Notes: a model not told the origin generated them from the letters alone. A stretch of 24,000 nt of DNA from Rickettsiales endosymbiont of Ecdyonurus torrentis (GCA_964020105.1 OZ026535.1:461657-485656), one strand, 5' to 3'. Counted from the stretch's first letter, positions 2,693-16,003 are shown. Numbers and translations: made by a program.

Positions 2693-2796
2693 CCTCCTCT
2701 GCAAGAGATTGAATACAGTTGGAATGGCAGAAATAGTATAATAGTATTTTAATGCTGCTATTTTAAAGTTACATTTTTTATAAAAACCATTGAAAC

Positions 2797-2839
2797 ATAA
2801 GTAAATAGACACTTTCAAGCGGAGTGTCTATTTACTTAT
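2797..2839 (+). terminator. Perfect 17-bp inverted repeat hairpin (9-nt loop) about 105 nt downstream of the large ORF; candidate terminator or structured element
   Basis: ATAAGTAAATAGACACT (2797-2813), loop TTCAAGCGG, AGTGTCTATTTACTTAT (2823-2839) is an exact reverse complement. No clean U-tract follows on either strand and only 4 of 17 pairs are G:C, so the terminator function is uncertain. Confidence 0.35.
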
Positions 2840-3706
2840 CTAAAAATAAAAGTACAATCTCTTAATTTTTTTATAAAAAAAACTATTTAATGATAGAAAA
2901 TTACTACTAACATTGTTGAGAAAAAATCCCAATTAAATGCTTTAAAGAGAGAAAAAGAGTTAATTTTCATAAAAAAGATAAAAATTTGATATTAATAAAT
3001 TTAAGTCGAAGATAATAGAAAATCGTCATATGTAAGAAGACTGTAATGATGAGAAATGAAAATAACAAGAAATAATAAGAAGAACAATTACTATATATCC
3101 CAGGATAATTCTGTTTAATATAACAATAACAGTACAAAATAAAGAAATTAGAAAAAAGACGAGGATAAATATAATGAGCATTTTGCTAAGAAAAAAGAGA
3201 GTTAAAAAGAGTAAAGCTTCATAATTAAGACTAACATACAAGAGGATAAAATGCAGATAAAAAAGTGCTAAATAATTATGATTATTTAGCATTAGATGTA
3301 TTAGTCACGTCTTAGTTTTAATAAAAAATTGATTAACTAAAATAATTATTATCTAGCAATTTTATCCCATTTAAAGATTCTTAAATTCCTGGTAAATTTT
3401 TCTCACTATATCATATATGTCAAAGATGAAATTTATTTAAAGACTAAAGACTTAACAATTATAATTATATTAACTTTAATTTTAGTGCCATTGAAGATCG
3501 TACTGTTTAACACTAAGTTCTGCTTACTACAAAAAAAATCCTTTTAAATGGTTAAGTTGCTTTTCAAGGTATCCCTGATTTAGTACATGTATCATAATAA
3601 TCAGATTCTCATCAAATTATTAAAATTAGTTTAAAAATATATAAGAATCTATTTTTTATCAATTTATGTCATATTGTGTTATATTAAGTGAAATAATTCA
3701 AAAATG

Positions 3707-3735
3707 TTGACAGATATGAATATATAATTTACTAT
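3707..3735 (+). promoter_or_regulatory. Candidate sigma70-type promoter for the yhf/php-like operon
   Basis: Consensus -35 TTGACA (3707-3712), 17-nt spacer, -10-like TACTAT (3730-3735), about 90 nt upstream of the ATG at 3825. -10-like hexamers are frequent in DNA this AT-rich, so this is tentative. Confidence 0.3.
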
Positions 3736-3824
3736 ATAAATATCGTTATTGCTAATTAAAATAACATTTAGCAACACTGATCAATAATTTTATTGGGTTG
3801 AATATTGACTACTAAGATAAGTAA

Positions 3825-4193
3825 ATGAAAAAATATAAAGAAAATTTACAAAAAAGGTTAGATGTTTTAGAGTCCTCTGGCGTTATATCTAAACGTTCTA
3901 GTGATGTTGTTATGCACTCATTAGGTCAGCTAATCTCATATGCAAAATTCCCTAATAATCAGGAAGCATTTGATATTTTTTTTACTCATTTAGCTCTATC
4001 TACAGAAAGAGCATTATTAAATAAACAATTAGAAGACTATGATAAGTTAATAGAAGGTGAATTAAGAATGCAGAACGATTATTCAAAGATAAAAAAAATG
4101 GTTGCTTTGATTGAAAATGATGCAAACTTAAAATTCACAGATGCGGAAAAAATTTTTATAATGTTACATTTATGTAGTATAGTATCAAATTAA
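3825..4193 (+). CDS. yhfY: Stand-alone PRD-domain protein (YhfY-like), 122 aa
   Basis: ATG-initiated ORF and first gene of the cluster. Helical sequence with a PRD-like conserved His/Arg segment (FFTHLALSTERAL). The size and its position next to DUF2620/YhfT/Php match E. coli YhfY. No RNA- or DNA-binding domain is attached. Confidence 0.7.
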   Translation: MKKYKENLQKRLDVLESSGVISKRSSDVVMHSLGQLISYAKFPNNQEAFDIFFTHLALSTERALLNKQLEDYDKLIEGELRMQNDYSKIKKMVALIENDANLKFTDAEKIFIMLHLCSIVSN

Positions 4194-4208
4194 GTAAGGG
4201 ATTTGGGT

Positions 4209-4571
4209 ATGAAAAAAATAGTCGTAGCTGGGCAACTAGATAAAGAAAAAATAGCTGATTTAATTAGAAAATTAGGAGGAGACAAAGTTCATATAGAAGT
4301 AAAAGGAGATATGGAGGCTGCTTTTGATATGAAAAATAAACTATTTGATTATTATATAGGAGCTTGCAATACAGGAGGTGGAGGTGCAATTGCTATGCCG
4401 ATTGCCATTTTAGGATCTTCACTCTGTGTTACTTTATCCATGCCTGGTAGGTTGTGTAGTAAGGAAGAAATAGAAAACTTTGTTGCCAAAGGTAAGGTGG
4501 TTTATGGCTTTACTGCCCAGCATGCCGAGCAAGTATTGCCTATGCTGATGCCTTTGTTATTGAAAGATTAA
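4209..4571 (+). CDS. yhfU: DUF2620-family protein (YhfU-like), 120 aa
   Basis: The ORF track starts at TTG 4203. ATG 4209 is preferred because AAGGGA (4196-4201) sits 7 nt upstream. Contains a Cys/Gly-rich loop, YYIGACNTGGGGAIAMP. The size and position directly upstream of the YhfT-like permease match E. coli yhfU. Confidence 0.72.
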   Translation: MKKIVVAGQLDKEKIADLIRKLGGDKVHIEVKGDMEAAFDMKNKLFDYYIGACNTGGGGAIAMPIAILGSSLCVTLSMPGRLCSKEEIENFVAKGKVVYGFTAQHAEQVLPMLMPLLLKD

Positions 4572-4599
4572 TAAGTGTGCTACCAGAGGAGCTTTATTT

Positions 4600-5919
4600 A
4601 TGCCAATATTAGCAGATGGACAAATATTTAGATTTTTAATTATTGGACTTTTAGGTGCTTTAGCCTCTTTGCTTAGTAAGCGCGGAGTTGCCGTCTTTCA
4701 TGATGGATTGCGTCCTGTAATGCCAGAGTATATCGAGGGGAAAATAGATAAAAAATCTTTAATGGCAACCTCTTTTGCTTTATCTTTTGGCTTAGTTATT
4801 GGCTTTGGTATACCAGCTTCAATTGCAGCATCTACTGTTGTTTCCATATTGCTTATTCATTCTGTTCTCCTGGGAACTGACATCATAGGAACTTGGAGCC
4901 CTAGTACTTCTTTAGGTGATTTTATTGCAGCCTTAGTAGGATTCATATATGCAGTTCTATTATTACTTGGTCTTGGCTTTATTGTTGAGTTGTTTGCCAA
5001 AATGCCTGTTAACTTTTTACCTCATCTAGGAGAAATAGGTACACCGATAATTACAGCTTTTGCCGTATTCCCTGCACTGGTTATTGCTTATCAGTACGGC
5101 TTTAAAAAGGGAATTTTAGTGCTTGCTATTGCTCTTTTAGCAAAGCAGTTGATTATTAAGTTAGACTTTATTTCTATATTTGATATGAAAATTAAACTTA
5201 ATGCCGACGGTATAGCTTTGCTCGTATCAATGTTAATAATGTTATTTTTGGCAGCAACAGATAAAACAAAAGTAGTGAATAACAATTCTGGAGTAGCACT
5301 AATTAGTTTGTTCTCTGATCGTGTAAAAAGAATTAAAAAAAATTTATTGATCCTAGCTATAACCGGTGGGGTTATAGCTACCGCTACCTCCATGGGTATG
5401 CTCGCTGGTGATTTAATATCATTAAATCTCCTCAAAGACGGTATTAGAACAGAAGCAGCTTTAACTGCTTTTGCTATTGCCCTTGGATTTATACCTCTTG
5501 TTGGCACAACTGCCATTACAACAGGAGTATATAGTCCCGCTGGTATGAAATTTGTTTTTGTTATTGGTATCTTAGTTGCTAATCCATTATTGGCTTTTTT
5601 ATTTGGAGCTCTTGTTATTGTTCTTGAAGTGCTTTTCTTAGAGCGAATTGCTATCTTGGTAGAAAAATCGCCTGGTATCAAAGAATGTAGTAATCATATT
5701 AGAACCGCAACCACTAAAGTGTTAGAATTGGCTTTGCTAGTAGGTGGGATGATAGCTGCTGAAAAAATTGCACCAAAAATTGGTTTCTTTTTTGTAATTG
5801 GTCTATATTTAATTAATAAAACCTCCAGAAAACCCTTTGTGGAAATGGCTTTAGGACCCATTGCTGCAATTCTTTTAGGAATTATTATGAATATTTTATA
5901 TGTCTTAGGAATTATATAG
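4600..5919 (+). CDS. yhfT: Polytopic inner-membrane protein, YhfT-like putative transporter, 439 aa
   Basis: GAGGAG SD (4586-4591) lies 8 nt before the ATG. The product is highly hydrophobic with about 10-12 predicted TM segments. The length (439 aa vs about 434 in E. coli YhfT) and the neighbourhood match. The 5091-5681(-) ORF inside it is a shadow frame. Confidence 0.8.
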   Translation: MPILADGQIFRFLIIGLLGALASLLSKRGVAVFHDGLRPVMPEYIEGKIDKKSLMATSFALSFGLVIGFGIPASIAASTVVSILLIHSVLLGTDIIGTWSPSTSLGDFIAALVGFIYAVLLLLGLGFIVELFAKMPVNFLPHLGEIGTPIITAFAVFPALVIAYQYGFKKGILVLAIALLAKQLIIKLDFISIFDMKIKLNADGIALLVSMLIMLFLAATDKTKVVNNNSGVALISLFSDRVKRIKKNLLILAITGGVIATATSMGMLAGDLISLNLLKDGIRTEAALTAFAIALGFIPLVGTTAITTGVYSPAGMKFVFVIGILVANPLLAFLFGALVIVLEVLFLERIAILVEKSPGIKECSNHIRTATTKVLELALLVGGMIAAEKIAPKIGFFFVIGLYLINKTSRKPFVEMALGPIAAILLGIIMNILYVLGII

Positions 5920-5929
5920 TAGGATAGAG

Positions 5930-6832
5930 ATGAAATTTAAAAATGCTATCTATGCCCATGAACACATTGCTCTAGATCTTTCTACACCTGAGCGCCCTGA
6001 ACGTGTTTTAAATAAATTAGAATCCACCAGGGATGAATTCATACTATTAAAACAACTTGGGGTCTCTAGAATTGTTGATTTAACTGCTAAGGGCATGGGA
6101 CGAAATATAGCTTCAATCGTTAATTTAAGAGAGCTTACACAGCTTGATATTACAGTGGCAACTGGATATTATAAGAAACCTTATTTGCCTCAGGAGGTTT
6201 ATGATAATGACGTCAATGCATTGGCCAAATTAATGTTGAATGAAATATATGAAGGAATTGAATATCATCCAGATAAGAAAAAAGTTAAAGCAACTGTGAT
6301 AGGCGAAATTGGTACCTCTTTGAATGAAATTACACAGGAAGAGTATAAAATTTTCTCCGCAAGTGCAATAGTTCAAAAAAATTCCTTGTTGCCTTTAGTA
6401 ACTCATACAACTTTAGCAACTATGGCACTTGAGCAGATAGATCTTCTTAGAAGCTTTGAGGTTGATTTAACTAAGGTTGTAATTAGTCATATGGATCTAA
6501 GTAATTCTCTAGAATACATAATAAAAGTATTAGATAGTGGAGTTAATATAGGTTTTGATACTATAGGTAAGCTAAATTATAAATCGGATGACACTAGGGC
6601 TAAGTACTTACTTGAGCTTTGTCAAAGGGGATATGTAAGCCAGATTGTTATGTCAGTTGATATAACTGCTAATGCTCAACTTAAAGATATGCATGGTATT
6701 GGATATGCATATTTAATAGAGCAGTTTATTCCAAAACTTTCAGCTAGTGGTGTAAAAGAGATGGATATTAGAACAATCACGGAAGACAATCCCAATAGGA
6801 TCTTTGCTAGGAGTTTTAAAGATGATAAGTAG
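5930..6832 (+). CDS. php: Phosphotriesterase-homology protein (Php; amidohydrolase-superfamily binuclear metal hydrolase), 300 aa
   Basis: Aligns by eye along its whole length with E. coli Php: AHEHIALDL, ATGYY, VIGEIGTS, VTHTT, LEQIDLL, ISHMDL, FDTIGK, MSVDIT, FIPKLSASG. All six expected metal ligands are present (H10, H12, E126, H159, H187, D244 in this ORF). Confidence 0.9.
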   Translation: MKFKNAIYAHEHIALDLSTPERPERVLNKLESTRDEFILLKQLGVSRIVDLTAKGMGRNIASIVNLRELTQLDITVATGYYKKPYLPQEVYDNDVNALAKLMLNEIYEGIEYHPDKKKVKATVIGEIGTSLNEITQEEYKIFSASAIVQKNSLLPLVTHTTLATMALEQIDLLRSFEVDLTKVVISHMDLSNSLEYIIKVLDSGVNIGFDTIGKLNYKSDDTRAKYLLELCQRGYVSQIVMSVDITANAQLKDMHGIGYAYLIEQFIPKLSASGVKEMDIRTITEDNPNRIFARSFKDDK

Positions 6833-7931
6833 TATTATGCAAAGCTATCCTTTGCCTTATTTAAGCTTAGAGGAAGCAATTGAAAAACAGTTTAAATTGG
6901 TAGAGGTTATAACTAGTCATTTTAGGGATAATGAATTTCTAAGTTATGGTGATGTTGGTCTAAATCAGTTAAGTAATGCGCCTTTATATACAAGAAAAGT
7001 AGAAGCAGTATTGGCAGAATATTTTTCTGCTGAAAGCTGTGTGCTGGTTAGGGGGGCTGGGAGTGGTGCACTTAGATATGCTCTTATTAGTGTGTTGCAG
7101 CCTAAGGAAAATATATTGTTGCATAATGCAGAAATATATCCTACAACAGCTATATCTATAAATTCCATGGGGCTTGAGAAAATATTTGCAGATTTTAATT
7201 CAGCAAAAGATATGGAAAACATTTTAGCAGCAGGTAATATCAAAACCATGCTATTGCAGATTAGTCGACAAAAATTAAGTGATAGTTATGACGCTACTAA
7301 GGTTATAGATATCGCTAAGACACATGGGATTAATAACATTATCACAGATGACAATTATACAGTAATGAAGGTTAAAAAGATAGGTGTAGAGATAGGAGCA
7401 GATTTATCAACATTTTCACTGTTTAAGCTTTTAGGATCCCAAGGAATCGGATGTATTCTTGGCAAAAAATATCTGATAGATGAAATTAAAAATATGAATT
7501 ATTCTGGAGGATCTGCAGTACAAGGGTTTGAGGCAATGGAATGTTTAAGGGGATTAGTTTATACTCCAGTTACTTTTGCCCTGCAGGCAAAAGTACTAGA
7601 TGCTGTTTTAAATAGACTTAATAATAATGAAATACAAGATGTAGAAAGCGCAGTAATTGCTAACACACAATCAAGGGTTATTATTGTTAAATTGAAAAAA
7701 GCAATTGCAAAACAAGTTATAAATAATGCTGTAAAATTCGGTGCGGTTAATTATCCTGTAGGGGCGGAATCTAAATTTGAAATTACTCCTATGTTTTATC
7801 GTTGTTCTTCAACTTTACTAAAAGAAAATCCTCAATATGCAGACTATTTAGTTAGGATTAATCCTATGCGAGCAGGAGTAGACACTACAATAAATATTCT
7901 AAAACGTAGTATAGCAATTAGTACTAAATAG
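6822..7931 (+). CDS. yhfS: Fold-type-I PLP-dependent enzyme, YhfS-like, 369 aa
   Basis: The ORF track starts at TTG 6804. ATG 6822 is preferred because TAGGAG (6808-6813) sits 8 nt upstream. It overlaps the php stop by 11 nt. Contains a PLP-lysine-type segment, STFSLFKLLGSQGIGCILGKK. The length (369 vs about 361 aa) and context match E. coli YhfS. Confidence 0.78.
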   Translation: MISSIMQSYPLPYLSLEEAIEKQFKLVEVITSHFRDNEFLSYGDVGLNQLSNAPLYTRKVEAVLAEYFSAESCVLVRGAGSGALRYALISVLQPKENILLHNAEIYPTTAISINSMGLEKIFADFNSAKDMENILAAGNIKTMLLQISRQKLSDSYDATKVIDIAKTHGINNIITDDNYTVMKVKKIGVEIGADLSTFSLFKLLGSQGIGCILGKKYLIDEIKNMNYSGGSAVQGFEAMECLRGLVYTPVTFALQAKVLDAVLNRLNNNEIQDVESAVIANTQSRVIIVKLKKAIAKQVINNAVKFGAVNYPVGAESKFEITPMFYRCSSTLLKENPQYADYLVRINPMRAGVDTTINILKRSIAISTK

Positions 7932-7938
7932 GAATTAT

Positions 7939-9108
7939 ATGTTTTTAAATGCTTTGGTTAAGAAAAATCCTAAATTTATATCCACAGTAAGTAATTTGTA
8001 TCAACAAAATAAACTAGAGCCTGATACATATGTTATAGATCTCGATACTCTTCTTTATAATGCAGAGTTAATTCTTAAAGAAGCTAGAGATCAAGCAATG
8101 GATATTTTATTTATAACCAAACAATTAGGATTCAATCCGTTAATTGCACAAGAGCTAGTTAGATTAGGATATGAAGGAGCTGTTTGTGTGGATTTTAAAG
8201 AAGCTGAAGCTATGATTAAAAATAAAATCCCAATTATTCATAGTGGTCATTTAGTGCAAATACCAAAATGTAAAATAGATAAGTTAGTATTACATAGTAA
8301 ATACATAACAGTATTTTCTTTACATAAAATAAAAGAAATTAACGAAGTTGCGTCCAGGCAGAATAAGATTCAAAACATTTTTCTTAGGATTTGTGGAGAA
8401 AATGATACCTTTTATCCAGGCCAAATTGGTGGGTTTAAATTAGAAGAACTAGCAGTACTAATTTCTCAAGTAAGGAATCTACAAAATATTAAGATAGCTG
8501 GGATCACTTCATTTCCTTGTTTTTTATATAATAGCGCTAGCAAAGCCATAGAAGCTACTAATAATGTTAAAACATTGTTAGTAGCTAAAAAACTTTTAAG
8601 TGATCTTGGTATTATTATTGAAACTTTAAATATGCCATCAAGTATTTGTAAAAATAGCATAAAGATAGCAAAAAAGAGTGGAGCCACTCAAGTTGAGGTG
8701 GGGCATGGTGTTAGTGGTACTACTCCATTACACGCGGAAGACTTTAGTCAGCCTGAAATACCTGCTATTTTGTATCTAAGTGAGCTATCCCACCAATATG
8801 GTGGAGTGAGCTACTTTTATGGAGGAGGATATTATAGGAGAGGGTATCTTAAAAATGCTATTTTGAGTAGTGATATTAGCAAGGGGATATTTAATGATTT
8901 TAAGGAAGTAGAGCAACTTGATAGTACTGTTATTGACTATTATTTTGGCTTAAAGTCATTAGAAAATTTATCACAAGGGGTGATAACAAGTTTTCGCACA
9001 CAAATGTTTATAACTAGAAGCAAAATAGCAATTATAAGTGGAGCTAATGATAATGATCCTAAAATACAGGGGATATATGATATTTTTGGTAAAAAAATAG
9101 ATAGTTAG
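7939..9108 (+). CDS. yhfX: Alanine-racemase-N-domain-like (fold-type III) PLP enzyme, YhfX-like, 389 aa
   Basis: ATG 7939 is preceded by TAGGA. The N-terminal pattern YVIDLDTLLYNAELI...FITKQLGFNP resembles the alanine racemase / YhfX barrel with a candidate PLP lysine. The length (389 vs about 387 aa) and context match E. coli YhfX. Confidence 0.78.
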   Translation: MFLNALVKKNPKFISTVSNLYQQNKLEPDTYVIDLDTLLYNAELILKEARDQAMDILFITKQLGFNPLIAQELVRLGYEGAVCVDFKEAEAMIKNKIPIIHSGHLVQIPKCKIDKLVLHSKYITVFSLHKIKEINEVASRQNKIQNIFLRICGENDTFYPGQIGGFKLEELAVLISQVRNLQNIKIAGITSFPCFLYNSASKAIEATNNVKTLLVAKKLLSDLGIIIETLNMPSSICKNSIKIAKKSGATQVEVGHGVSGTTPLHAEDFSQPEIPAILYLSELSHQYGGVSYFYGGGYYRRGYLKNAILSSDISKGIFNDFKEVEQLDSTVIDYYFGLKSLENLSQGVITSFRTQMFITRSKIAIISGANDNDPKIQGIYDIFGKKIDS

Positions 9109-9119
9109 GAGAGATTATT

Positions 9120-10358
9120 TTGTCTAAGAGAGTTCTTCTTTTTATATTGGATGGCTTTGGTATTGGGGTTATGGATGATTATTTAAAATTCAACCCAAAG
9201 GATAGAGGAGCTAATACTGCCAAGAGTGTTTTATTGATAAATCCAGATATTAAGATACCAAATTTGTTAAAATTAGGTTTAATTAATGCCATAGGTGAAA
9301 ACATTGGTGAGTTTGATGTTTCAAGTAATGCTGTTTTTGGTAAGATGGCTTTAAAGCATTTTGGAGCAGATAGTTTTTTTGGCCATCAAGAAATAATGGG
9401 AACAGAGCCTAAAGAGCCATTGGAGAGACCATTTTTTGAAGTTGCTGAGAGTGTATATAATTTTTTAATTACAAAATCTATTAAAGTGAGAAAAGTATAC
9501 GCAAAAGATTTATCTTTAAGTAATGAAGAAAAGTTACTGTTTTTAGTAATTAATGAATGTGCAGTATTTGCAGATAATTTAGAAAGCATGCCAGGAAGCG
9601 TATATAATTTAACATGCTCACTGGATATAATTAGTTTTCAGAAGATACAAGAGTTGGCTAAATTATTAAGGAATGAATTAACTATTCCAAGAATTATTGC
9701 TTTTGGAGGCAGTGGAGTAACTTTGCAAAATATCTTGGAAGCAAGTGAAGTAAAGGGTAATTATTTTGGGATCAATGCTCCTAGAAGTGGTGTTTATAAA
9801 TGCAACTATCAGGTTGTGCATATGGGTTATGGAATAGATGCAACCAAACAGGTGCCATATTATTTAGAGAAAATCCATATTCCTACAATTTTTCTTGGCA
9901 AAGTTGCAGATATAGTTGTTAATAATTATGGTAAAAATATTCCTGGGGTTGCCACAGAGGTTATTTTAAAAAATACTCTGCAAGAATTTAAAAGCATAAA
10001 TAAGGGGTTTGTTTGTGCTAACATTCAAGAAACAGATTTAGCAGGACATGCTGAAGATGCAAAATTATTTGGTGAAAAAATACAAATTTTTGATGAATAT
10101 TTAACTTTCTTTTTGCAAGAAATGGACAAAGATGATTTATTAATGATTATAGCTGACCATGGTAATGATCCATGTATTAAACATTCTTTACATACTAGGG
10201 AGTACGTGCCTTTGCTGATTGCTTCTATTGAGAATCGCAAAAGTATTAAGGATCTGGGTATAAGGCATAGTATGGCAGATGTTGGTAAAACTATTTTGGA
10301 TTATTTTGCTGCAGAAAATAAGTTATTTGGTAAGTCATTTTTAGAAGATATTAAATAA
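9120..10358 (+). CDS. yhfW: Phosphopentomutase-like metalloenzyme (alkaline-phosphatase superfamily), YhfW-like, 412 aa
   Basis: TTG start at 9120 is supported by AGGAG (9107-9111) 8 nt upstream. DeoB-type metal-site motifs are present: LFILDGFGIG, ETDLAGHAEDA, IIADHGNDPC. The length (412 vs about 408 aa) and context match E. coli YhfW. Confidence 0.85.
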   Translation: MSKRVLLFILDGFGIGVMDDYLKFNPKDRGANTAKSVLLINPDIKIPNLLKLGLINAIGENIGEFDVSSNAVFGKMALKHFGADSFFGHQEIMGTEPKEPLERPFFEVAESVYNFLITKSIKVRKVYAKDLSLSNEEKLLFLVINECAVFADNLESMPGSVYNLTCSLDIISFQKIQELAKLLRNELTIPRIIAFGGSGVTLQNILEASEVKGNYFGINAPRSGVYKCNYQVVHMGYGIDATKQVPYYLEKIHIPTIFLGKVADIVVNNYGKNIPGVATEVILKNTLQEFKSINKGFVCANIQETDLAGHAEDAKLFGEKIQIFDEYLTFFLQEMDKDDLLMIIADHGNDPCIKHSLHTREYVPLLIASIENRKSIKDLGIRHSMADVGKTILDYFAAENKLFGKSFLEDIK

Positions 10359-10585: not shown

Positions 10586-11785
10586 TTATATAACCTGATT
10601 TTGTATATTAAATACAAATTTTGTATTTATAGAACGCTTAGATGGAGTATACTCTAGAGAATCTATATCTACTGATTGCAAACAATCCTTTGTAAATATA
10701 TCACTTAAAAAAGCGTACATTGTATCATATTTATCTTTGAATGTATTATTAAATTTAGTGTAATCAGTATGACAAAATAAATTATAAGGATCTGGATAGC
10801 CTTTCGGAAAAAAGCTATTTGGTATATTAAAATATTCTGCTAACTCTCTTGTTCTTGAATCAAAAGCATCAATATACGCTGGAATTCCTGCTAGCAAAGA
10901 CATTATATTTCCATGTATACGACAACCAAAAGAAAAGTGATATTGCTCATTTTTTAAATCATTATACCAATCTAAAAAATCACAGTATATCTTTATCCTG
11001 TTATTAAGATACAGTTTTAGCCAATGATGAGTACTATCTGCTAAATACTGACACTCTTTCCAAGTTAGTGCATCCGGCAGATATAATAACTTATAAAATT
11101 CATCCTGATCCACAAATGTAGATCTTGGATATTTCGTAAATATGTATCTATGAGTTACATCATTCCACAACCTAAAGCCATTGGTTGTTAAATTAAAATT
11201 TTCCATTGAAACTTCTTTTTTATTAACCTGTAGATCTCTTCCCTTAGCCATCATAGATATACAGCCAATAACTTTTGCATCATCGTAGGAAAAGCCTAGT
11301 TGATTAAATACTTCATGAGAAAAAAAACCTCTCAATCCTATCTTGCCTCTATTATTTAGTACTAGTTTGAAAAAATCATAGGCTTCATTTTTAATTTCTG
11401 TTATAAAAGTGGTTGAGTAACTATTGCAGGATTGTGCACCGGCAGAAATAACGTGGACAGGGATTTTTATTTGGTGAAATAGTTTTGTCATTAACGGTAA
11501 CATATCTTTCATATATATTGATATAATGTTAGCTGGAAGCAGTACTAGGCTAGAGTAATTTTCATTTATATAATTTATTTCCTCAGGAGTGATTGCTAAT
11601 AGACTACCTAAGCCATTTTCTCTGACATCATAACATTTGTCTTTTAGAGCTGATTGCAGGGCGAACTCGAAGACAATATTGCCTGTGTTACCACCAATAC
11701 GACTCTTAACCACAGAGTGATGGGAAGAATAGTTAAATGGTTTCCTATGATCCTTTCCTAAAACTAATAAAAATTTCTGACTCAT
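10586..11785 (-). CDS. Polysaccharide pyruvyl-transferase-family-like protein, 399 aa
   Basis: ATG is preceded by GAGGT. The N-terminal IGGNTGNIVFEFA resembles the G-x-x-N-x-G-D/N motif of this family. The C-terminal FGCRIHGNIMSLLAGIPAYIDAFDSRTRELAEYFNIP resembles the conserved R-x-H...G-x-P segment. Called from motif memory only. Confidence 0.6.
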   Translation of the reverse strand: MSQKFLLVLGKDHRKPFNYSSHHSVVKSRIGGNTGNIVFEFALQSALKDKCYDVRENGLGSLLAITPEEINYINENYSSLVLLPANIISIYMKDMLPLMTKLFHQIKIPVHVISAGAQSCNSYSTTFITEIKNEAYDFFKLVLNNRGKIGLRGFFSHEVFNQLGFSYDDAKVIGCISMMAKGRDLQVNKKEVSMENFNLTTNGFRLWNDVTHRYIFTKYPRSTFVDQDEFYKLLYLPDALTWKECQYLADSTHHWLKLYLNNRIKIYCDFLDWYNDLKNEQYHFSFGCRIHGNIMSLLAGIPAYIDAFDSRTRELAEYFNIPNSFFPKGYPDPYNLFCHTDYTKFNNTFKDKYDTMYAFLSDIFTKDCLQSVDIDSLEYTPSKRSINTKFVFNIQNQVI

Positions 11786-11942
11786 GTTACCTCATATATG
11801 TTTTGATACATGGAATATTCATAAATATATACAATAGTGGTAAAAATAGCAAATTAAATTCTGACTCATGCTACCTCATATGTGTTATTATACACAGAAT
11901 ATCTATGATTATATACAATAATAGTAAAAATAGCAAATTAAA
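11775..11942. repeat. Tandem direct duplication, 2 x 84 bp (72/84 identical, no indels), covering the 5' end, SD and upstream region of the minus-strand gene
   Basis: Copy 1 is 11775-11858 and copy 2 is 11859-11942. I aligned them base by base and found 12 mismatches. Both copies begin with TTCTGACTCATG, whose reverse complement carries ATGAGTCAGAA (Met-Ser-Gln...) preceded by GAGGT. Confidence 0.9.
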
Positions 11943-11945
11943 TAT

Positions 11946-11974
11946 TTGTAATATCTAATAAAAATTGCTATTAT
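11946..11974 (+). promoter_or_regulatory. Candidate promoter for the plus-strand glycan operon
   Basis: TTGTAA (11946-11951), 17-nt spacer, TATTAT (11969-11974), 27 nt upstream of the ATG at 12001. Weak evidence in AT-rich DNA. Confidence 0.25.
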
Positions 11975-12000
11975 ATGGTTGTTTTATGTGGGAATGATAA

Positions 12001-12933
12001 ATGAAATTGGCTGTTCAGATCTTTGGTCACTTAAGAACTTATGGAGTGTGTCATAGGTCATTATATAAGAATATATTATCTAGATATTCTTGTGATATTT
12101 TTATACATACATGGTCAGATGTTAATCATTATAATCAGTACTGGAATAAAGAAGTTGTAAAACAGATTAACTCACATAATATAGTGGATGATATAAAAAA
12201 AATTTATGCACCAAAAAAACTTCTGATAGAAGATCAGAAGCAAGAAAAAATTGGTAAAGCAAAAAAATTAATCAATAAAAATATAAATATCGATTCTATA
12301 AAGTCGATGTATCATAGTATGACTTCTGTCAATAATCTACGTCTATCATACGAGGAAGAAACAAGTACCAAATATGATTTTGTCATTATGCTTCGACCAG
12401 ATCTTTATTTTAGAAAGCCTTTTATAATAGAGGATTATTTCAAAGACATTGATCCACATATAATAGAGGAAACTGTATTTACAGCGGGACTTCCATTAGG
12501 TTCGTTATACTCCTCATTTAAATCAATAGAAGCTGCAGATGTATTTTTTTTTGCTAGACCTTATCTTATAAATAAGATTTATTCCGTAGAGAATATTGCA
12601 GTATCTTTAGCGGAAGAGATAGTTGTAACAACACCTAGCATTGAATACTTGCTAGCAAAATCCATTAAGAATGCTGGATATACTATGATTCTTATAAATT
12701 ACATTTATAAAAAAGATTTTAGTATTATAAGACCTTTTAATATTAAGGATCTCAGATTTTCAAACATTAAGAAAATTCGAAGAGGACTATTTAGTGTGAG
12801 GATCAATAAAAATAGAATCCATATAGTAATTTTAGGGTTGTGTGTGCGTAGATTTTTAAGAATAACCTTTCATATTGGAGAAGGATATTGTATAAATATA
12901 TGTTTAGGAAATGGATACATAAATGTTATGTAA
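12001..12933 (+). CDS. Hypothetical protein, 310 aa, first gene of the glycan-modification operon (function not recognised)
   Basis: ATG-initiated ORF in the same orientation as the five downstream genes and closely spaced with them. I cannot confidently name any motif. The assignment to glycan biosynthesis rests on context only. Confidence 0.6.
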   Translation: MKLAVQIFGHLRTYGVCHRSLYKNILSRYSCDIFIHTWSDVNHYNQYWNKEVVKQINSHNIVDDIKKIYAPKKLLIEDQKQEKIGKAKKLINKNINIDSIKSMYHSMTSVNNLRLSYEEETSTKYDFVIMLRPDLYFRKPFIIEDYFKDIDPHIIEETVFTAGLPLGSLYSSFKSIEAADVFFFARPYLINKIYSVENIAVSLAEEIVVTTPSIEYLLAKSIKNAGYTMILINYIYKKDFSIIRPFNIKDLRFSNIKKIRRGLFSVRINKNRIHIVILGLCVRRFLRITFHIGEGYCINICLGNGYINVM

Positions 12934-12949
12934 TTTAAAGAGGAATAAA

Positions 12950-13696
12950 ATGCTAAATATAGTTTTGCCAATGGCTGGAAGAGGAAGTAGGTTTGCTGAT
13001 GCTGGTTACAAAACTCCCAAACCGCTTATTGAAATTAATAATGTTCCTATGATAAAAGTTGTAGTAGACAATCTTACACCAATTAGGGAGCATAGATTTA
13101 TTTTTGTTTGTCAAAAAGAGCACGTTGAAAAGTATGATTTGCTTCCTAAATTGAAGTCATATGCTAAGAATGTTGAAATTATTACAATAGATAGAATCAC
13201 AGAAGGTCAGGTATGCACAGCTCTGCTTGCTAAAAGATTCTTTGATAATGATGAGCCTCTTATGAATGCAAATTCTGATCAATATATTGATTTTGATATT
13301 AATGAGTATCTTGATGCTATGGACGCTAGGAGTCTTGATGGTATGATTATGACTATGAAATCACAAGATTCAAAGTGGTCATATGCTAAAATCAATAATG
13401 AGGGGTTGGTTGTTGAAACAGCAGAAAAAAAGGTAATATCAGATGACGCTGCTGTGGGAATTTTTAATTTTGCTAAAGGTAAATATTTGGTACGTTCAGC
13501 AGAACAGATGATAAAAGATAATATTAGAGTCAATGGTGAATTTTATACTTGTCCATGCTATAATTATCTGATAAAAGAGGGGAAAAAAATAGGTATATAT
13601 AATATTGGTGAGGAGTATAACGGTATGTATGGGCTTGGAATACCTGAAGATCTTAATTTTTTTATCAAAAGTAAAATATCCCAAAGGATTAAATAG
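12950..13696 (+). CDS. Sugar-phosphate nucleotidyltransferase-like protein (GT-A fold), 248 aa
   Basis: The ORF track starts at 12923. ATG 12950 is preferred because AAGAGGA (12938-12944) lies upstream and this start avoids overlap with the previous gene. The N-terminal signature LPMAGRGSRFADAGYKTPKPLI is the G-x-G-[ST]-R plus Lys NTP-binding loop of nucleotidyltransferases. Confidence 0.8.
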   Translation: MLNIVLPMAGRGSRFADAGYKTPKPLIEINNVPMIKVVVDNLTPIREHRFIFVCQKEHVEKYDLLPKLKSYAKNVEIITIDRITEGQVCTALLAKRFFDNDEPLMNANSDQYIDFDINEYLDAMDARSLDGMIMTMKSQDSKWSYAKINNEGLVVETAEKKVISDDAAVGIFNFAKGKYLVRSAEQMIKDNIRVNGEFYTCPCYNYLIKEGKKIGIYNIGEEYNGMYGLGIPEDLNFFIKSKISQRIK

Positions 13697-13700
13697 GATC

Positions 13701-14330
13701 ATGCTTATTTTGTCGCATAGAGGGTATTGGAAAGATGACAAGGAAAAAAATCAAAAAATAGCTTTTCAGCGTAGTTTTGATATGGGGTTTGGTACAGAGA
13801 CAGATGTGCGGGATAGTATGGGGAAAATTGTTATTGCACATGATATGCCGATGGGAGGTGAGATAACACTTGAAAATTTGTTAGATATAATGGCAGGGCG
13901 CAATTTACCACTTGCACTTAATATTAAGGCTGATGGGCTATGTGAAATTGTTAGGGATATTTTAGGTAAATATGGTCATCATAACTATTTTTGTTTTGAT
14001 ATGTCTATTCCTGATATGATAATATACATGAGGAAAAGTGTTAAGTTTTTTACAGGATTAAGTGATATATTATCAAAGCCTGTACTTTTAGAGGAAGCAG
14101 ATGGTGTGTGGCTTGATAGTTTTAATAGTGATTGGTATCAGCACCACTTGATTGATGAAATTATAAATGAAAATAAGACTGTATGTGTGGTATCTTCTGA
14201 TTTACATAAAAGGTCTAATAAAGAGCAATGGGGTATTATAAAAAAATCCCATAATATAAATAGTGATAAGCTGATATTATGTACTGATTATCCAGAGGAA
14301 GCTAGGAGATATTTCAATGAGAAAAATTAA
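13701..14330 (+). CDS. Glycerophosphodiester-phosphodiesterase (GDPD)-like protein, 209 aa
   Basis: ATG 13701 follows the upstream stop by 4 nt, with AGGA upstream. The 13605 start would overlap the previous gene by 92 nt. The N-terminus LSHRGYW...NQKIAFQRSFDMGFGTETDVRD fits the GDPD pattern H-R-G...N...AF...E-x-D. Confidence 0.68.
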   Translation: MLILSHRGYWKDDKEKNQKIAFQRSFDMGFGTETDVRDSMGKIVIAHDMPMGGEITLENLLDIMAGRNLPLALNIKADGLCEIVRDILGKYGHHNYFCFDMSIPDMIIYMRKSVKFFTGLSDILSKPVLLEEADGVWLDSFNSDWYQHHLIDEIINENKTVCVVSSDLHKRSNKEQWGIIKKSHNINSDKLILCTDYPEEARRYFNEKN

Positions 14331-14955
14331 AGCAGTTTTATTTGATATGGATGGGGTGTTGATAGAGGCAAAGGATTGGCATTATGAGGCTTTAAATAAG
14401 TCATTAGGGCTTTTTGGTTATAAAATTGAGCGTTATGAACATCTTACTAGTTATGATGGTTTGCCTACTAAGACAAAGCTAAAAAAACTCTCTAAAGAAA
14501 AGGGGCTTCCTGAGGCGTTACATGATTTTATAAATGAAATGAAACAACAATATACAATTTATATGATACATCAATTATGTCGACCTTGTTTTAATCATGA
14601 GTACTTATTGTCTCGTTTAAAGCACGAAGGGTATAAATTAGCTGTTGGTTCTAATTCCATACGTAAGACTGTAGAAATGATGATGGATTATGCTAAACTA
14701 ACACAGTATTTTGATTGTATGATTTCTAATCAAGATGTTAAAAACTCTAAGCCAGATCCAGAAATATATTGTAGAGCAATGAATTTGTTAAATGTAAAAC
14801 CAAATGAGTGTTTGATAGTAGAGGATAATGAGAATGGGATTAAAGCAGCTAATGCTTCTGGGGGGCATGTCTTAATAGTTAGAGATGTTAATGAAGTTAC
14901 TTATGAAGCAGTTAAAAATAAGATTTATGAAATTGAAAATGAGGTAAAGCTATGA
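14317..14955 (+). CDS. HAD-superfamily hydrolase (subfamily IA-like phosphatase / phosphomutase), 212 aa
   Basis: HAD motif I VLFDMDGVLIE, motif II VGSNS, motif III/IV K-P...VEDNENGIKAA. TAGGAG (14303-14308) lies 8 nt upstream. It overlaps the previous gene by 14 nt. Confidence 0.85.
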   Translation: MRKIKAVLFDMDGVLIEAKDWHYEALNKSLGLFGYKIERYEHLTSYDGLPTKTKLKKLSKEKGLPEALHDFINEMKQQYTIYMIHQLCRPCFNHEYLLSRLKHEGYKLAVGSNSIRKTVEMMMDYAKLTQYFDCMISNQDVKNSKPDPEIYCRAMNLLNVKPNECLIVEDNENGIKAANASGGHVLIVRDVNEVTYEAVKNKIYEIENEVKL

Positions 14956-15683
14956 AAATAGTATTCTTGATGGGAGGACATAGTATTTCTCAGAGCAATG
15001 AAGATTATCCATTATGTTTTGCAGAAATTAATGGAGAGCTTGTTTTAGAGAAACATATACAGTATTGTTTAGAATTAAAACCATCAGAGTTGATATTCTG
15101 TGTTAGAGCTGAAGATATAAAGAGATATTGTATTGATGAGGTTATTAAGCGGTTGGATTCAGAAGCAAATATAGTCACTATTAATACACAAACTAGGGGT
15201 GCTGTTTGTACAGCTTTGCTTGGGATTGAGTATATTAATAATGATGAAGAGTTGATAGTTATGGCTGTTGATGATTTCATTGAGGGTGGTGGTGTTAGTA
15301 TAATAAAAGAGTTTAGAGAGAAAAATCACGCTGCTGGTATTGTGTATTTCAGCTCTGTTCATCCTAGATATTCTTTTGCTAAGATTAATAATGGTGAGGT
15401 TGTTGAAGTTGCTGAGAAGCATCCTATAAGTAAAAATGCTTTAGTGAGTTTTTATTATTTTCAAAAAGGACTAGATTTTGTTAGGTGTGCTATGGAGGTT
15501 ATTCGTAAGGATAGCCCTGTGAAAGATGCTTTTTATATAAGTCAGACATTGAATGAAATGATTTTACAACAGAAAACAGTTGGTGCTTATAAGATTGATA
15601 ATAGTAAGTTTCATCCGTTAAAAACAAAAATTCAATTAGCACAGTATATAACATATTTAAAAGAGATGAGAGATAGTAAATGA
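14952..15683 (+). CDS. Paralogue of the 12950-13696 nucleotidyltransferase-like protein with a degenerate NTP-binding loop, 243 aa
   Basis: Clear paralogy: RGAVCTALLGIEYINNDEELIVMAVDDFI vs EGQVCTALLAKRFFDNDEPLMNANSDQYI, and YSFAKINNGEVVEVAEKHPIS vs WSYAKINNEGLVVETAEKKVIS. The N-terminal loop is FLMGGHSISQSNEDYPLCF instead of LPMAGRGSRFADAGYKTPKPLI. ATGA start/stop overlap with the upstream gene. Confidence 0.72.
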   Translation: MKIVFLMGGHSISQSNEDYPLCFAEINGELVLEKHIQYCLELKPSELIFCVRAEDIKRYCIDEVIKRLDSEANIVTINTQTRGAVCTALLGIEYINNDEELIVMAVDDFIEGGGVSIIKEFREKNHAAGIVYFSSVHPRYSFAKINNGEVVEVAEKHPISKNALVSFYYFQKGLDFVRCAMEVIRKDSPVKDAFYISQTLNEMILQQKTVGAYKIDNSKFHPLKTKIQLAQYITYLKEMRDSK

Positions 15684-16003
15684 GGTTAGCAAAACTGGAT
15701 TCTATGACAAAAGGTTGGTTTATAGGTAATTTTTTACCAAGTTTATCTAAAACAGATGCTTGTGAGGTTGCTGTTAAGCATTATAAAAAGGGGGATACCG
15801 AGGCAAAACATTATCATAAGATTGCTGTTGAGTACACTGTGATTGTTTTTGGAGTGGTTCTTATGAATGGAGTAGAATATGGGGCAGGAGATATAATTAT
15901 TATGGAACCCAATGAAGCAACAGATTTTAAGGTATTATCGGATACTGCGGTAAATGTGGTAGTTAAATTGCCTTCAGTTAAAAATGATAAATATTTAGTT
16001 TAA
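15680..16003 (+). CDS. Small cupin-domain protein, 107 aa
   Basis: Exact fit to cupin motif 1, G(X)5HXH(X)4E(X)6G, in KGDTEAKHYHKIAVEYTVIVFG. ATGA overlap with the upstream gene indicates translational coupling. Confidence 0.75.
   Translation: MRLAKLDSMTKGWFIGNFLPSLSKTDACEVAVKHYKKGDTEAKHYHKIAVEYTVIVFGVVLMNGVEYGAGDIIIMEPNEATDFKVLSDTAVNVVVKLPSVKNDKYLV

Follow-up and report, generated by a model that had tools for sequence, protein, structure and literature searches.

The 24-kb stretch of DNA analyzed here (GCA_964020105.1 OZ026535.1:461657-485656; hereafter, the window), from the Rickettsiales endosymbiont of Ecdyonurus torrentis, harbors at positions 3825-10358 an intact seven-gene member of the known, conserved yhf/php gene cluster. 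The notable features of this copy are its host, its origin across a phylum boundary, and the loss of the yhfZ gene. We put at about one in two the probability that the operon serves to break down or salvage a phosphorylated sugar, amino sugar or polyol to which an amino acid or acyl group is attached.

Identity and integrity of the seven genes

The seven open reading frames (ORFs) lie on one strand in the order Y-U-T-php-S-X-W (aa, amino acids; PLP, pyridoxal phosphate; SD, Shine-Dalgarno sequence):

3825..4193, plus strand: yhfY homolog, stand-alone PRD-domain protein, 122 aa (Pfam PRD, 1.2e-7)
4209..4571, plus strand: yhfU homolog, 120 aa (Pfam DUF2620, 3.5e-42), with the cysteine motif GACNTGGGG
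4600..5919, plus strand: yhfT homolog, polytopic membrane protein and presumed permease, 439 aa (Pfam YhfT, 2.9e-155)
5930..6832, plus strand: php homolog, two-metal hydrolase of the amidohydrolase superfamily, 300 aa (Pfam PTE, 2.9e-63)
6822..7931 (or from 6837), plus strand: yhfS homolog, fold-type-I PLP enzyme (Pfam YhfS-like_C, 1.1e-38)
7939..9108, plus strand: yhfX homolog, fold-type-III PLP enzyme, 389 aa (Pfam Ala_racemase_N and YhfX-like_C)
9120..10358, plus strand: yhfW homolog, phosphopentomutase-like protein of the alkaline-phosphatase superfamily, 412 aa (Pfam Metalloenzyme), with a TTG start and an AGGAG SD

All seven ORFs are full length and free of frameshifts, as judged by BLASTP against E. 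coli K-12. The matches are one-to-one and cover the full length of the proteins, with identities of 20% over 109 aa for YhfY, 41% for YhfU, 34% for YhfT, 36% for Php, 46% for YhfS, 38% for YhfX, and 42% for YhfW. Together with the Pfam and NCBIfam assignments, they bear out the correspondence to the E. coli proteins that an earlier, sequence-only reading of this DNA had proposed, and in a BLASTP and profile check set beforehand none of the seven products fell into an unrelated family.

Residue conservation was read from alignments of 67-84 members per family. YhfY keeps both PRD histidines, the family-invariant H55 and H114, which is found in 88% of members. The metal ligands of Php (H10, H12, E126, H159, H187, and D244) correspond to H12, H14, E125, H158, H186, and D243 of the E. 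coli protein, and YhfW keeps its metal and nucleophile motifs (D11, T95, D306, H310, D346, H347, and H358), so that both sites are intact in the alignments, as had been claimed. YhfS, which has a fold-I PLP domain by Pfam, matches E. coli YhfS (4j8l) at 3e-97 and keeps the PLP lysine of S-x-F-K, and YhfX matches E. coli YhfX (4kbx) at 9e-91 and keeps K61. The N-terminal part of YhfX scores 44 bits against Ala_racemase_N (cut-off 24), and its C-terminal domain is YhfX-like_C rather than Ala_racemase_C. With all catalytic residues retained, the enzymes look active.

The family models place two of the products more finely. Php scores 214.5 bits against Pfam PF02126 (PTE; cut-off 22.4) and 238.8 bits against NCBIfam NF007373, whose equivalog cut-off is 486, and is therefore a clear homolog below the NCBI equivalog threshold; among solved structures, E. 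coli Php (4lef, 1bf6) comes closest to it, at 189 bits. YhfW scores 457 bits against PRK12383, the NCBIfam model for YhfW-type "phosphopentomutase" (cut-off 254), whereas its score against the true DeoB model TIGR01696 is 123.9 bits, below the cut-off of 341.

The genes are as tightly packed as the sequence-only reading had described. The intergenic gaps are 15, 28, 10, 7, and 11 nt, and the php/yhfS junction depends on the start chosen for yhfS: ATG 6822, with AGGAG 9 nt upstream, gives an 11-nt overlap, and ATG 6837, the start that lines up with those of homologs, gives a 4-nt gap. The yhfS ORF can also be opened at 6804 and the yhfU ORF at 4203; for yhfU, ATG 4209 is most likely the start, because the product in the source database has 120 aa. 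SD-like, purine-rich sites precede six of the seven genes and yhfY has none, again much as previously noted. The GC content of the individual genes, 27-36% in a window with a mean of 31.5%, is on par with that of the core genes; the resemblance claimed earlier holds, but the value is slightly below the 35-38% given with it.

Gene order and origin of the cluster

The host genome, of ~1.38 Mb (source contig, 1,383,406 bp) and ~31% GC, is that of an alphaproteobacterium. The core genes kdsA-pyrG-secG-tpiA are located at the far end of the window, and the best named relatives of the PyrG protein are from metagenome-assembled genomes (MAGs) of Alphaproteobacteria (73-74%) and from a Candidatus Hepatincolaceae symbiont (66%), a group that NCBI taxonomy places in the Alphaproteobacteria. 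These relatives support the earlier view of an alphaproteobacteria-like genome, and by PyrG similarity the host is akin to Candidatus Hepatincolaceae, whose members live in the guts of arthropods and other ecdysozoans as symbionts. Published Hepatincolaceae genomes have 1.2-1.5 Mb and ~30% GC; several sugar transporters of the phosphotransferase system (PTS) have been reported for the group, as has the use of chitin derivatives for its arthropod-associated members (PMC13515547, PMC11724238).

That the cluster is foreign to the Alphaproteobacteria had been missed. Among 5.8 billion proteins, the sole close relative of the window YhfT belongs to an Alphaproteobacteria MAG (78%), and the next relatives are from Clostridium at ~60%. 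In a neighbor-joining tree of concatenated YhfT, Php, YhfS, YhfX, and YhfW, the window branches with the MAG, and the pair falls among Firmicutes, Thermotogae, and Fusobacteria, with Gammaproteobacteria the most distant. This grouping argues for a horizontal acquisition, and the GC content at third codon positions, 19-26% in the cluster and thus equal to the 16-24% in kdsA, pyrG, secG, and tpiA, indicates that the transfer was old, in agreement with the earlier statement that acquisition was not recent. The best reading of these comparisons is an old horizontal transfer from a Firmicute-like donor, followed by adaptation of the composition to the host. There was no evidence for a mobile plasmid as the vehicle, since YhfT relatives occur on very large replicons or mislabeled chromosomes only and none on small mobile plasmids.

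A scan of species-representative genomes found at least 520 with a YhfT relative, from which the best 80 by similarity to the window YhfT were taken and joined by the MAG contig to give a sample of 81 loci. We counted as complete the 68 loci in which all of yhfU, yhfT, php, yhfS, yhfX, and yhfW are present. The commonest order in this sample is Z-(Y)-U-T-P-S-X-W, which is the window order plus yhfZ and is found in 43 of the 68 complete loci; the order of the window is the usual one among Clostridia. The E. coli order, which a fetched K-12 region confirmed to be yhfZ-Y-X-W-php-U-T-S, occurs in just 2. The remaining orders include the following:

(Y)XWUTPS, Pasteurellaceae: 2 of 68 complete loci
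TPSXWTU: 2 of 68 complete loci

Only the two complete loci with the TPSXWTU order have yhfU and yhfT apart; in the other 66 of the 68 these genes are neighbors. The description of the window operon as "rearranged" was therefore misleading; since its order is common, the unusual feature is the absent regulator.

Absence of yhfZ and the upstream region

The gene yhfZ encodes a GntR-type regulator with HTH_41 and YhfZ_C domains. The 24-kb window contained no yhfZ in tblastn searches with the YhfZ proteins of E. coli and of the MAG (locus L002), and a 70-sequence YhfZ profile applied to its six frames found none either, the best match (E 0.022) lying inside another gene; the sequence-only reading had likewise seen no yhfZ-like regulator. 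The closest relative has the gene, and so do 63 of the 68 complete loci elsewhere. The position of yhfZ in relatives, upstream of yhfY, corresponds here to an intergenic region of 1.1 kb and ~24% GC (2693-3824) with no credible ORF. A minus-strand ORF at 3026-3292, encoding 88 very hydrophobic aa, looks like an AT-rich artifact. A yhfZ pseudogene in this region was considered and rejected, as the tblastn and profile searches found none and the small ORFs have the appearance of AT-rich artifacts. The operon is here without YhfZ and is probably constitutive or otherwise controlled.

Two features of the upstream region potentially bear on its expression:

3707..3735, plus strand: best promoter-like site upstream, TTGACA, 17 nt, TACTAT, ~90 nt 5' of the yhfY ATG, with 10 of 12 consensus matches
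3750..3773, strand not assigned: palindrome TGCTAA-N12-TTAGCA, a candidate operator located 3' of the promoter-like site and 5' of yhfY

Promoter-like sites are as numerous in the region as in shuffled sequence, and the one at 3707..3735 is proposed from its consensus match only. A scan of the window for TGCTAA-N(2-20)-TTAGCA returned three sites (3266-3291, 3750-3773, and 10016-10043) against 0.10 expected. Two of them are upstream of the operon and one is inside yhfW, with a spacer that varies (N12-16), and by their sequence these palindromes could be operators of some regulator. Rfam at gathering thresholds gave no matches in the window, and no tRNAs were found in it. The 105-nt leader RNA folds no better than shuffled sequence (z = -0.63), and in view of these results a riboswitch or antiterminator in the leader was dropped from consideration.

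The loss of yhfZ raises the question of whether the cluster is a relic that, poorly expressed since then, drifts toward loss in a shrinking symbiont genome. Besides the missing gene and the ORF-free 1.1-kb stretch of 24% GC at its position, the window proteins differ from the family consensus at 11% of the columns with a conservation of 90% or more, compared to a median of ~1%. However, the nearest relative, the MAG in which yhfZ is present, shows the same 11% departure and the same lineage-specific substitutions, so that the departure reflects divergence of the lineage and not decay, and relaxed selection following yhfZ loss was ruled out as its cause. All seven ORFs are full length without frameshifts, the catalytic residues are all present, and a cluster of 6.5 kb has been kept in a genome of 1.38 Mb. 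We consider a decaying relic very unlikely.

Remote relationships of YhfU, YhfT, and the PLP enzymes

The AlphaFold2 model of YhfU (predicted local distance difference test, pLDDT, 97) has as its best solved match the isomerase RpiB (5ifz), with a template-modeling (TM) score of 0.68-0.70 and a root-mean-square deviation of 2.9 Å. In an hhalign comparison, the loop GACNTGGGG with the invariant cysteine of YhfU is in register with ICGTGVG of E. coli RpiB, a weak match (E 0.025); the latter loop carries the catalytic cysteine of RpiB. The YhfU family profile gives further weak matches to the RpiB/LacAB-like structures 2ppw (E 0.13) and 3c5y (E 1.1); YhfU has no match to Pfam LacAB_rpiB (PF02502), and its Pfam family is DUF2620. 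By its model, YhfU is a protein of RpiB-like fold with an invariant cysteine. For YhfT (AlphaFold2 model with pLDDT 81, predicted TM score 0.82), neither Foldseek (best E 0.15, TM below 0.2) nor the sequence profile returned a match among solved structures, and the model may represent a transporter fold without a solved representative.

The pairing of these two proteins is also what could be expected of a new PTS-type group-translocation system, with YhfT as an EIIC-like channel, YhfU as an EIIB-like cysteine phosphocarrier, and YhfY as a phosphorylation sensor. The substrate would then be phosphorylated at entry, which would explain a cluster without a kinase. The side-by-side position of yhfU and yhfT in 66 of 68 complete loci, the location of the invariant cysteine in a glycine-rich loop, the PRD protein YhfY with both histidines present, the phosphate-dependent appearance of all the downstream enzymes, and the PTS components reported for Hepatincolaceae are all consistent with such a system. 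The structural comparison is not. EIIB proteins have their cysteine after strand 1, whereas that of YhfU follows strand 3, as in RpiB, and there is no EIIB among the top 50 fold matches of YhfU. YhfT has no match to the EIIC families of Pfam or to a solved EIIC, and a gene for EIIA is absent from the cluster. We consider group translocation an unlikely explanation.

Beyond their E. coli counterparts, the profiles of the two PLP enzymes reach different sets of relatives. That of YhfX matches, after 4kbx, alanine racemase (E 1.7e-4), YggS, D-threonine aldolase, and D-ornithine/D-lysine decarboxylase, and YhfX in this respect resembles enzymes acting on D-amino acids. The profile of YhfS reaches, after 4j8l, methionine gamma-lyases, further enzymes of cysteine and methionine metabolism, and cysteine desulfurases, for which reason we regard YhfS as more lyase-like than aminotransferase-like; its earlier description as a generic fold-I enzyme overlooked that the nearest solved relatives are cysteine/methionine gamma-lyases. 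Among characterized NCBIfam families, phospho-furanose lactonase (91 bits) ranks next for Php behind the Php model itself. In E. coli K-12 itself, YhfT and YhfU are strong outliers, with changes at 63 of 147 (43%) and 12 of 37 (32%) of the conserved columns, respectively; Php, YhfS, YhfX, and YhfW are close to the family consensus. The E. coli YhfT/YhfU pair may be either functionally divergent or degenerating.

Accessory genes in related loci

Several genes recur beside the cluster in the 81 loci. The most frequent is a divergent amidase-signature-like gene, present in 52 loci (24 between yhfT and php, 22 after yhfW, and 6 upstream on the opposite strand), whose product of 330-400 aa carries GSSS...TDGGGSVLAPA (for example, L025:5586-6701 and L010:11329-12414) and which is not annotated as a gene of the E. 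coli cluster. A gene for a PBP4B-like serine hydrolase of the class C beta-lactamase family is found in 12 loci. In 11 of them it is co-oriented and either inside the cluster or at most 192 nt away, and these 11 are diverse, with Clostridium, Sneathia, Streptobacillus, Granulicatella, Faecalibacterium, and Alkalibacterium among the carriers. A true nagB, the gene for glucosamine-6-phosphate deaminase (357 bits, cut-off 326), follows yhfW by 13-267 nt in 7 taxonomically diverse loci (for example, L003:16069-16803, L046:16933-17667, and L061:16880-17626), a linkage that hints at an amino-sugar 6-phosphate as the pathway product. Nucleoside hydrolase genes occur in 6 loci, DltB-like MBOAT genes with an SGNH-like partner in 7 loci of a single Clostridium tertium-like clade, and frlD-like or frlB-like genes near 2 loci. 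The amidase-like, PBP4B-like, and nagB genes taken together point to amide or ester cleavage and an amino-sugar-phosphate product. The window has none of these accessory genes.

The same neighborhood can be read as evidence for a narrower class of substrates, aminoacyl or acyl esters of polyol phosphates from the envelopes of other bacteria, such as teichoic-acid fragments of the D-alanyl-glycerol-phosphate or D-alanyl-ribitol-phosphate type or head groups from alanyl- or lysyl-phosphatidylglycerol. In this proposal, Php would deacylate the compounds, YhfX and YhfS would take the D-alanine or other amino acid, and YhfW and YhfU would take the polyol or sugar phosphate. The class C beta-lactamase family includes D-Ala esterases and DD-peptidases, so the hydrolases linked in 12 loci would fit this proposal, as would the alanine racemase and D-amino-acid enzymes among the remote relatives of YhfX and the DltB-like genes downstream in 7 loci. 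Key to it is the reported activity of E. coli Php on acetyl esters of glycerol-3-phosphate, for which the phosphate group is needed. However, the DltB-like neighbors come from one clade and are 1.4-2.9 kb off, the nagB linkage favors amino sugars over polyols, and the amidase-like gene is left without a role. We regard this narrower proposal as a long shot.

Proposed function

The literature searched by gene names, families, and product names gave no substrate or physiological role for the yhf/php cluster, in line with what had been stated earlier. A phosphate theme runs through the operon, in which YhfW is of phosphopentomutase type, YhfU has an RpiB-like fold, and Php has phospho-furanose lactonase as its next match. 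In the catabolic or salvage operon that we favor, YhfT would import the compound, and YhfU would isomerize its sugar-phosphate part or, alternatively, bind or relay phosphate at the transporter; the pathway proposed in the sequence-only reading, of hydrolysis, phosphate migration, and two PLP-dependent steps, is a reasonable proposal but gave YhfU no role, despite its RpiB-like fold. Php would hydrolyze an ester or amide bond near the phosphate, and YhfW would shift or remove the phosphate. The freed amino acid, possibly of D-type or O- or S-substituted, would be converted to central metabolites by YhfX, as an enzyme of racemase or D-amino-acid type, and by YhfS, as one of gamma-lyase type, and YhfY, via its PRD histidines, would couple expression or activity to the PTS. 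Because the cluster has no kinase, the phosphate would have to enter with the substrate or be added at uptake.

E. coli Php is reported, in work from the Raushel laboratory (Biochemistry, 2018), to hydrolyze phosphorylated glyceryl acetates with the phosphate group required. With this in vitro profile, the earlier remark that Php has no known substrate would be slightly out of date. The literature consulted assigns no function to E. coli Php, whose overexpression suppresses a pdxB deletion by a route inferred to form 2-oxo-3-hydroxy-4-phosphobutanoate (PMC3010111), and describes PTER, a mammalian relative of Php, as an N-acetyltaurine hydrolase (PMC11374699).

Several points weigh against this interpretation. 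The enzymatic steps are all predicted from family or fold, and the sequence similarity between YhfU and RpiB is weak (hhalign E 0.025, outside Pfam LacAB_rpiB). The accessory genes vary by lineage and are absent from the window, so that the substrate here may differ. The 81-locus sample is biased to relatives of the window YhfT and over-represents Clostridia, and the tree is a neighbor-joining tree with no support values. The yhfZ searches covered the 24-kb window, and a copy elsewhere in the 1.38-Mb genome is possible.

In a more elaborate version, which we consider improbable as a whole, the cluster would be a hitherto unrecognized pathway with which gut bacteria take up and dismantle envelope-derived conjugates, namely polyol or amino-sugar phosphates carrying aminoacyl or acyl groups in ester or amide linkage. 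YhfT, as a transporter whose fold is absent from solved structures, would act together with the RpiB-fold YhfU, and in this arthropod-gut symbiont the pathway would have been captured from Firmicutes and freed of YhfZ. The conjugates could be, for example, fragments of D-alanylated teichoic acids, head groups of aminoacyl-phosphatidylglycerol, or compounds resembling muropeptides.

Whichever its substrate, the yhf/php cluster is among the larger conserved E. coli gene sets still without an assigned function, with a YhfT relative in at least 520 species-representative genomes. That it was kept after passing from one phylum to another, in a gut symbiont with a genome of only 1.38 Mb, argues for its being useful in animal guts, and the window copy indicates that it can exist without YhfZ. 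The nagB, PBP4B-like, and amidase-like neighbors, the RpiB-like YhfU, the lyase-like YhfS, and the D-amino-acid-type YhfX narrow the substrate candidates.

Flanking genes of the window

Downstream of the operon, positions 10586-16003 contain a likely surface-polysaccharide block, with a polysaccharide pyruvyl transferase gene (minus strand), a DUF7796-like gene, a nucleotidyl transferase gene, a HAD hydrolase gene, and three family-less ORFs. The proximity of the pyruvyl transferase, nucleotidyl transferase, and HAD hydrolase genes is what could suggest a biosynthetic role, in which the operon and these genes would jointly produce or alter an amino-sugar or phospho-sugar component of the cell surface. 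However, the block adjoins the cluster in no other sampled locus, the pyruvyl transferase gene is convergent and not co-transcribed with the operon, and elsewhere the cluster has a permease, a GntR-type regulator, and the catabolic nagB. A role in biosynthesis is the least probable of the explanations weighed here.

Two large ORFs flank these regions. The one at 16307-19099 encodes 930 aa with no Pfam matches. Its product, in which the N-terminus resembles a signal peptide, FKHELTHNV forms an HExxH motif, and the last residue is aromatic, may be an outer-membrane or secreted metalloprotease-like protein. The other, at 44-2692, encodes 882 aa with no Pfam or NCBIfam matches; it has a GC content of 39%, above the rest of the window, and is rich in Gly, Asn, and Thr with an acidic C-terminal tail, and it may be secreted or located at the cell surface. 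About 100 nt past the stop of the 882-aa ORF, an inverted repeat of 17 nt without mismatches encloses a loop of 9 nt (2797-2839) and is probably the terminator of that gene.

Comparison with known systems

The E. coli K-12 cluster yhfZ-yhfY-yhfX-yhfW-php-yhfU-yhfT-yhfS (b3383-b3376) has counterparts to all seven window genes, with the same catalytic residues. It differs in its order (ZYXW-php-UTS, with yhfZ, against YUT-php-SXW without it) and in adjoining the convergent frlABCDR genes, whereas the window has no frl genes. The clusters of Firmicutes, Thermotogae, and Fusobacteria, yhfZ-Y-U-T-(amidase-like)-php-S-X-W-(nagB), share the seven-gene order of the window, with YhfT at 55-60%; in contrast to the window, they have yhfZ and many carry amidase-like, PBP4B-like or nagB genes. 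The nearest relative, on contig JAISPM010000093 of the MAG GCA_031274895.1, has the same order and similarities of 78% (YhfT), 65% (YhfU), 59% (Php), 61% (YhfS), 56% (YhfX), and 59% (YhfW). It differs in having yhfZ directly 5' of, and overlapping, yhfY, and its flanking genes asd, rplS, and trmD differ from those of the window, so the two loci are not syntenic.

At the level of single proteins, phospho-furanose lactonase (NF045706) and mammalian PTER share with Php the amidohydrolase TIM barrel and the two-metal site. Php scores 91 bits against NF045706 (cut-off 630), 84 bits against 3pnz, and 76 bits against PTER (9efa), compared to 189 bits against 1bf6/4lef, which assigns it to the Php subgroup, and the gene context of the window implies the substrate of neither enzyme. 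The RpiB/LacAB isomerases resemble the YhfU model in fold (TM ~0.7 to 5ifz), and the Cys-x-Thr-Gly-x-Gly loop of YhfU aligns weakly with ICGTGVG of E. coli RpiB; YhfU is ~30 residues shorter, belongs to Pfam DUF2620, and is encoded beside a membrane-protein gene.

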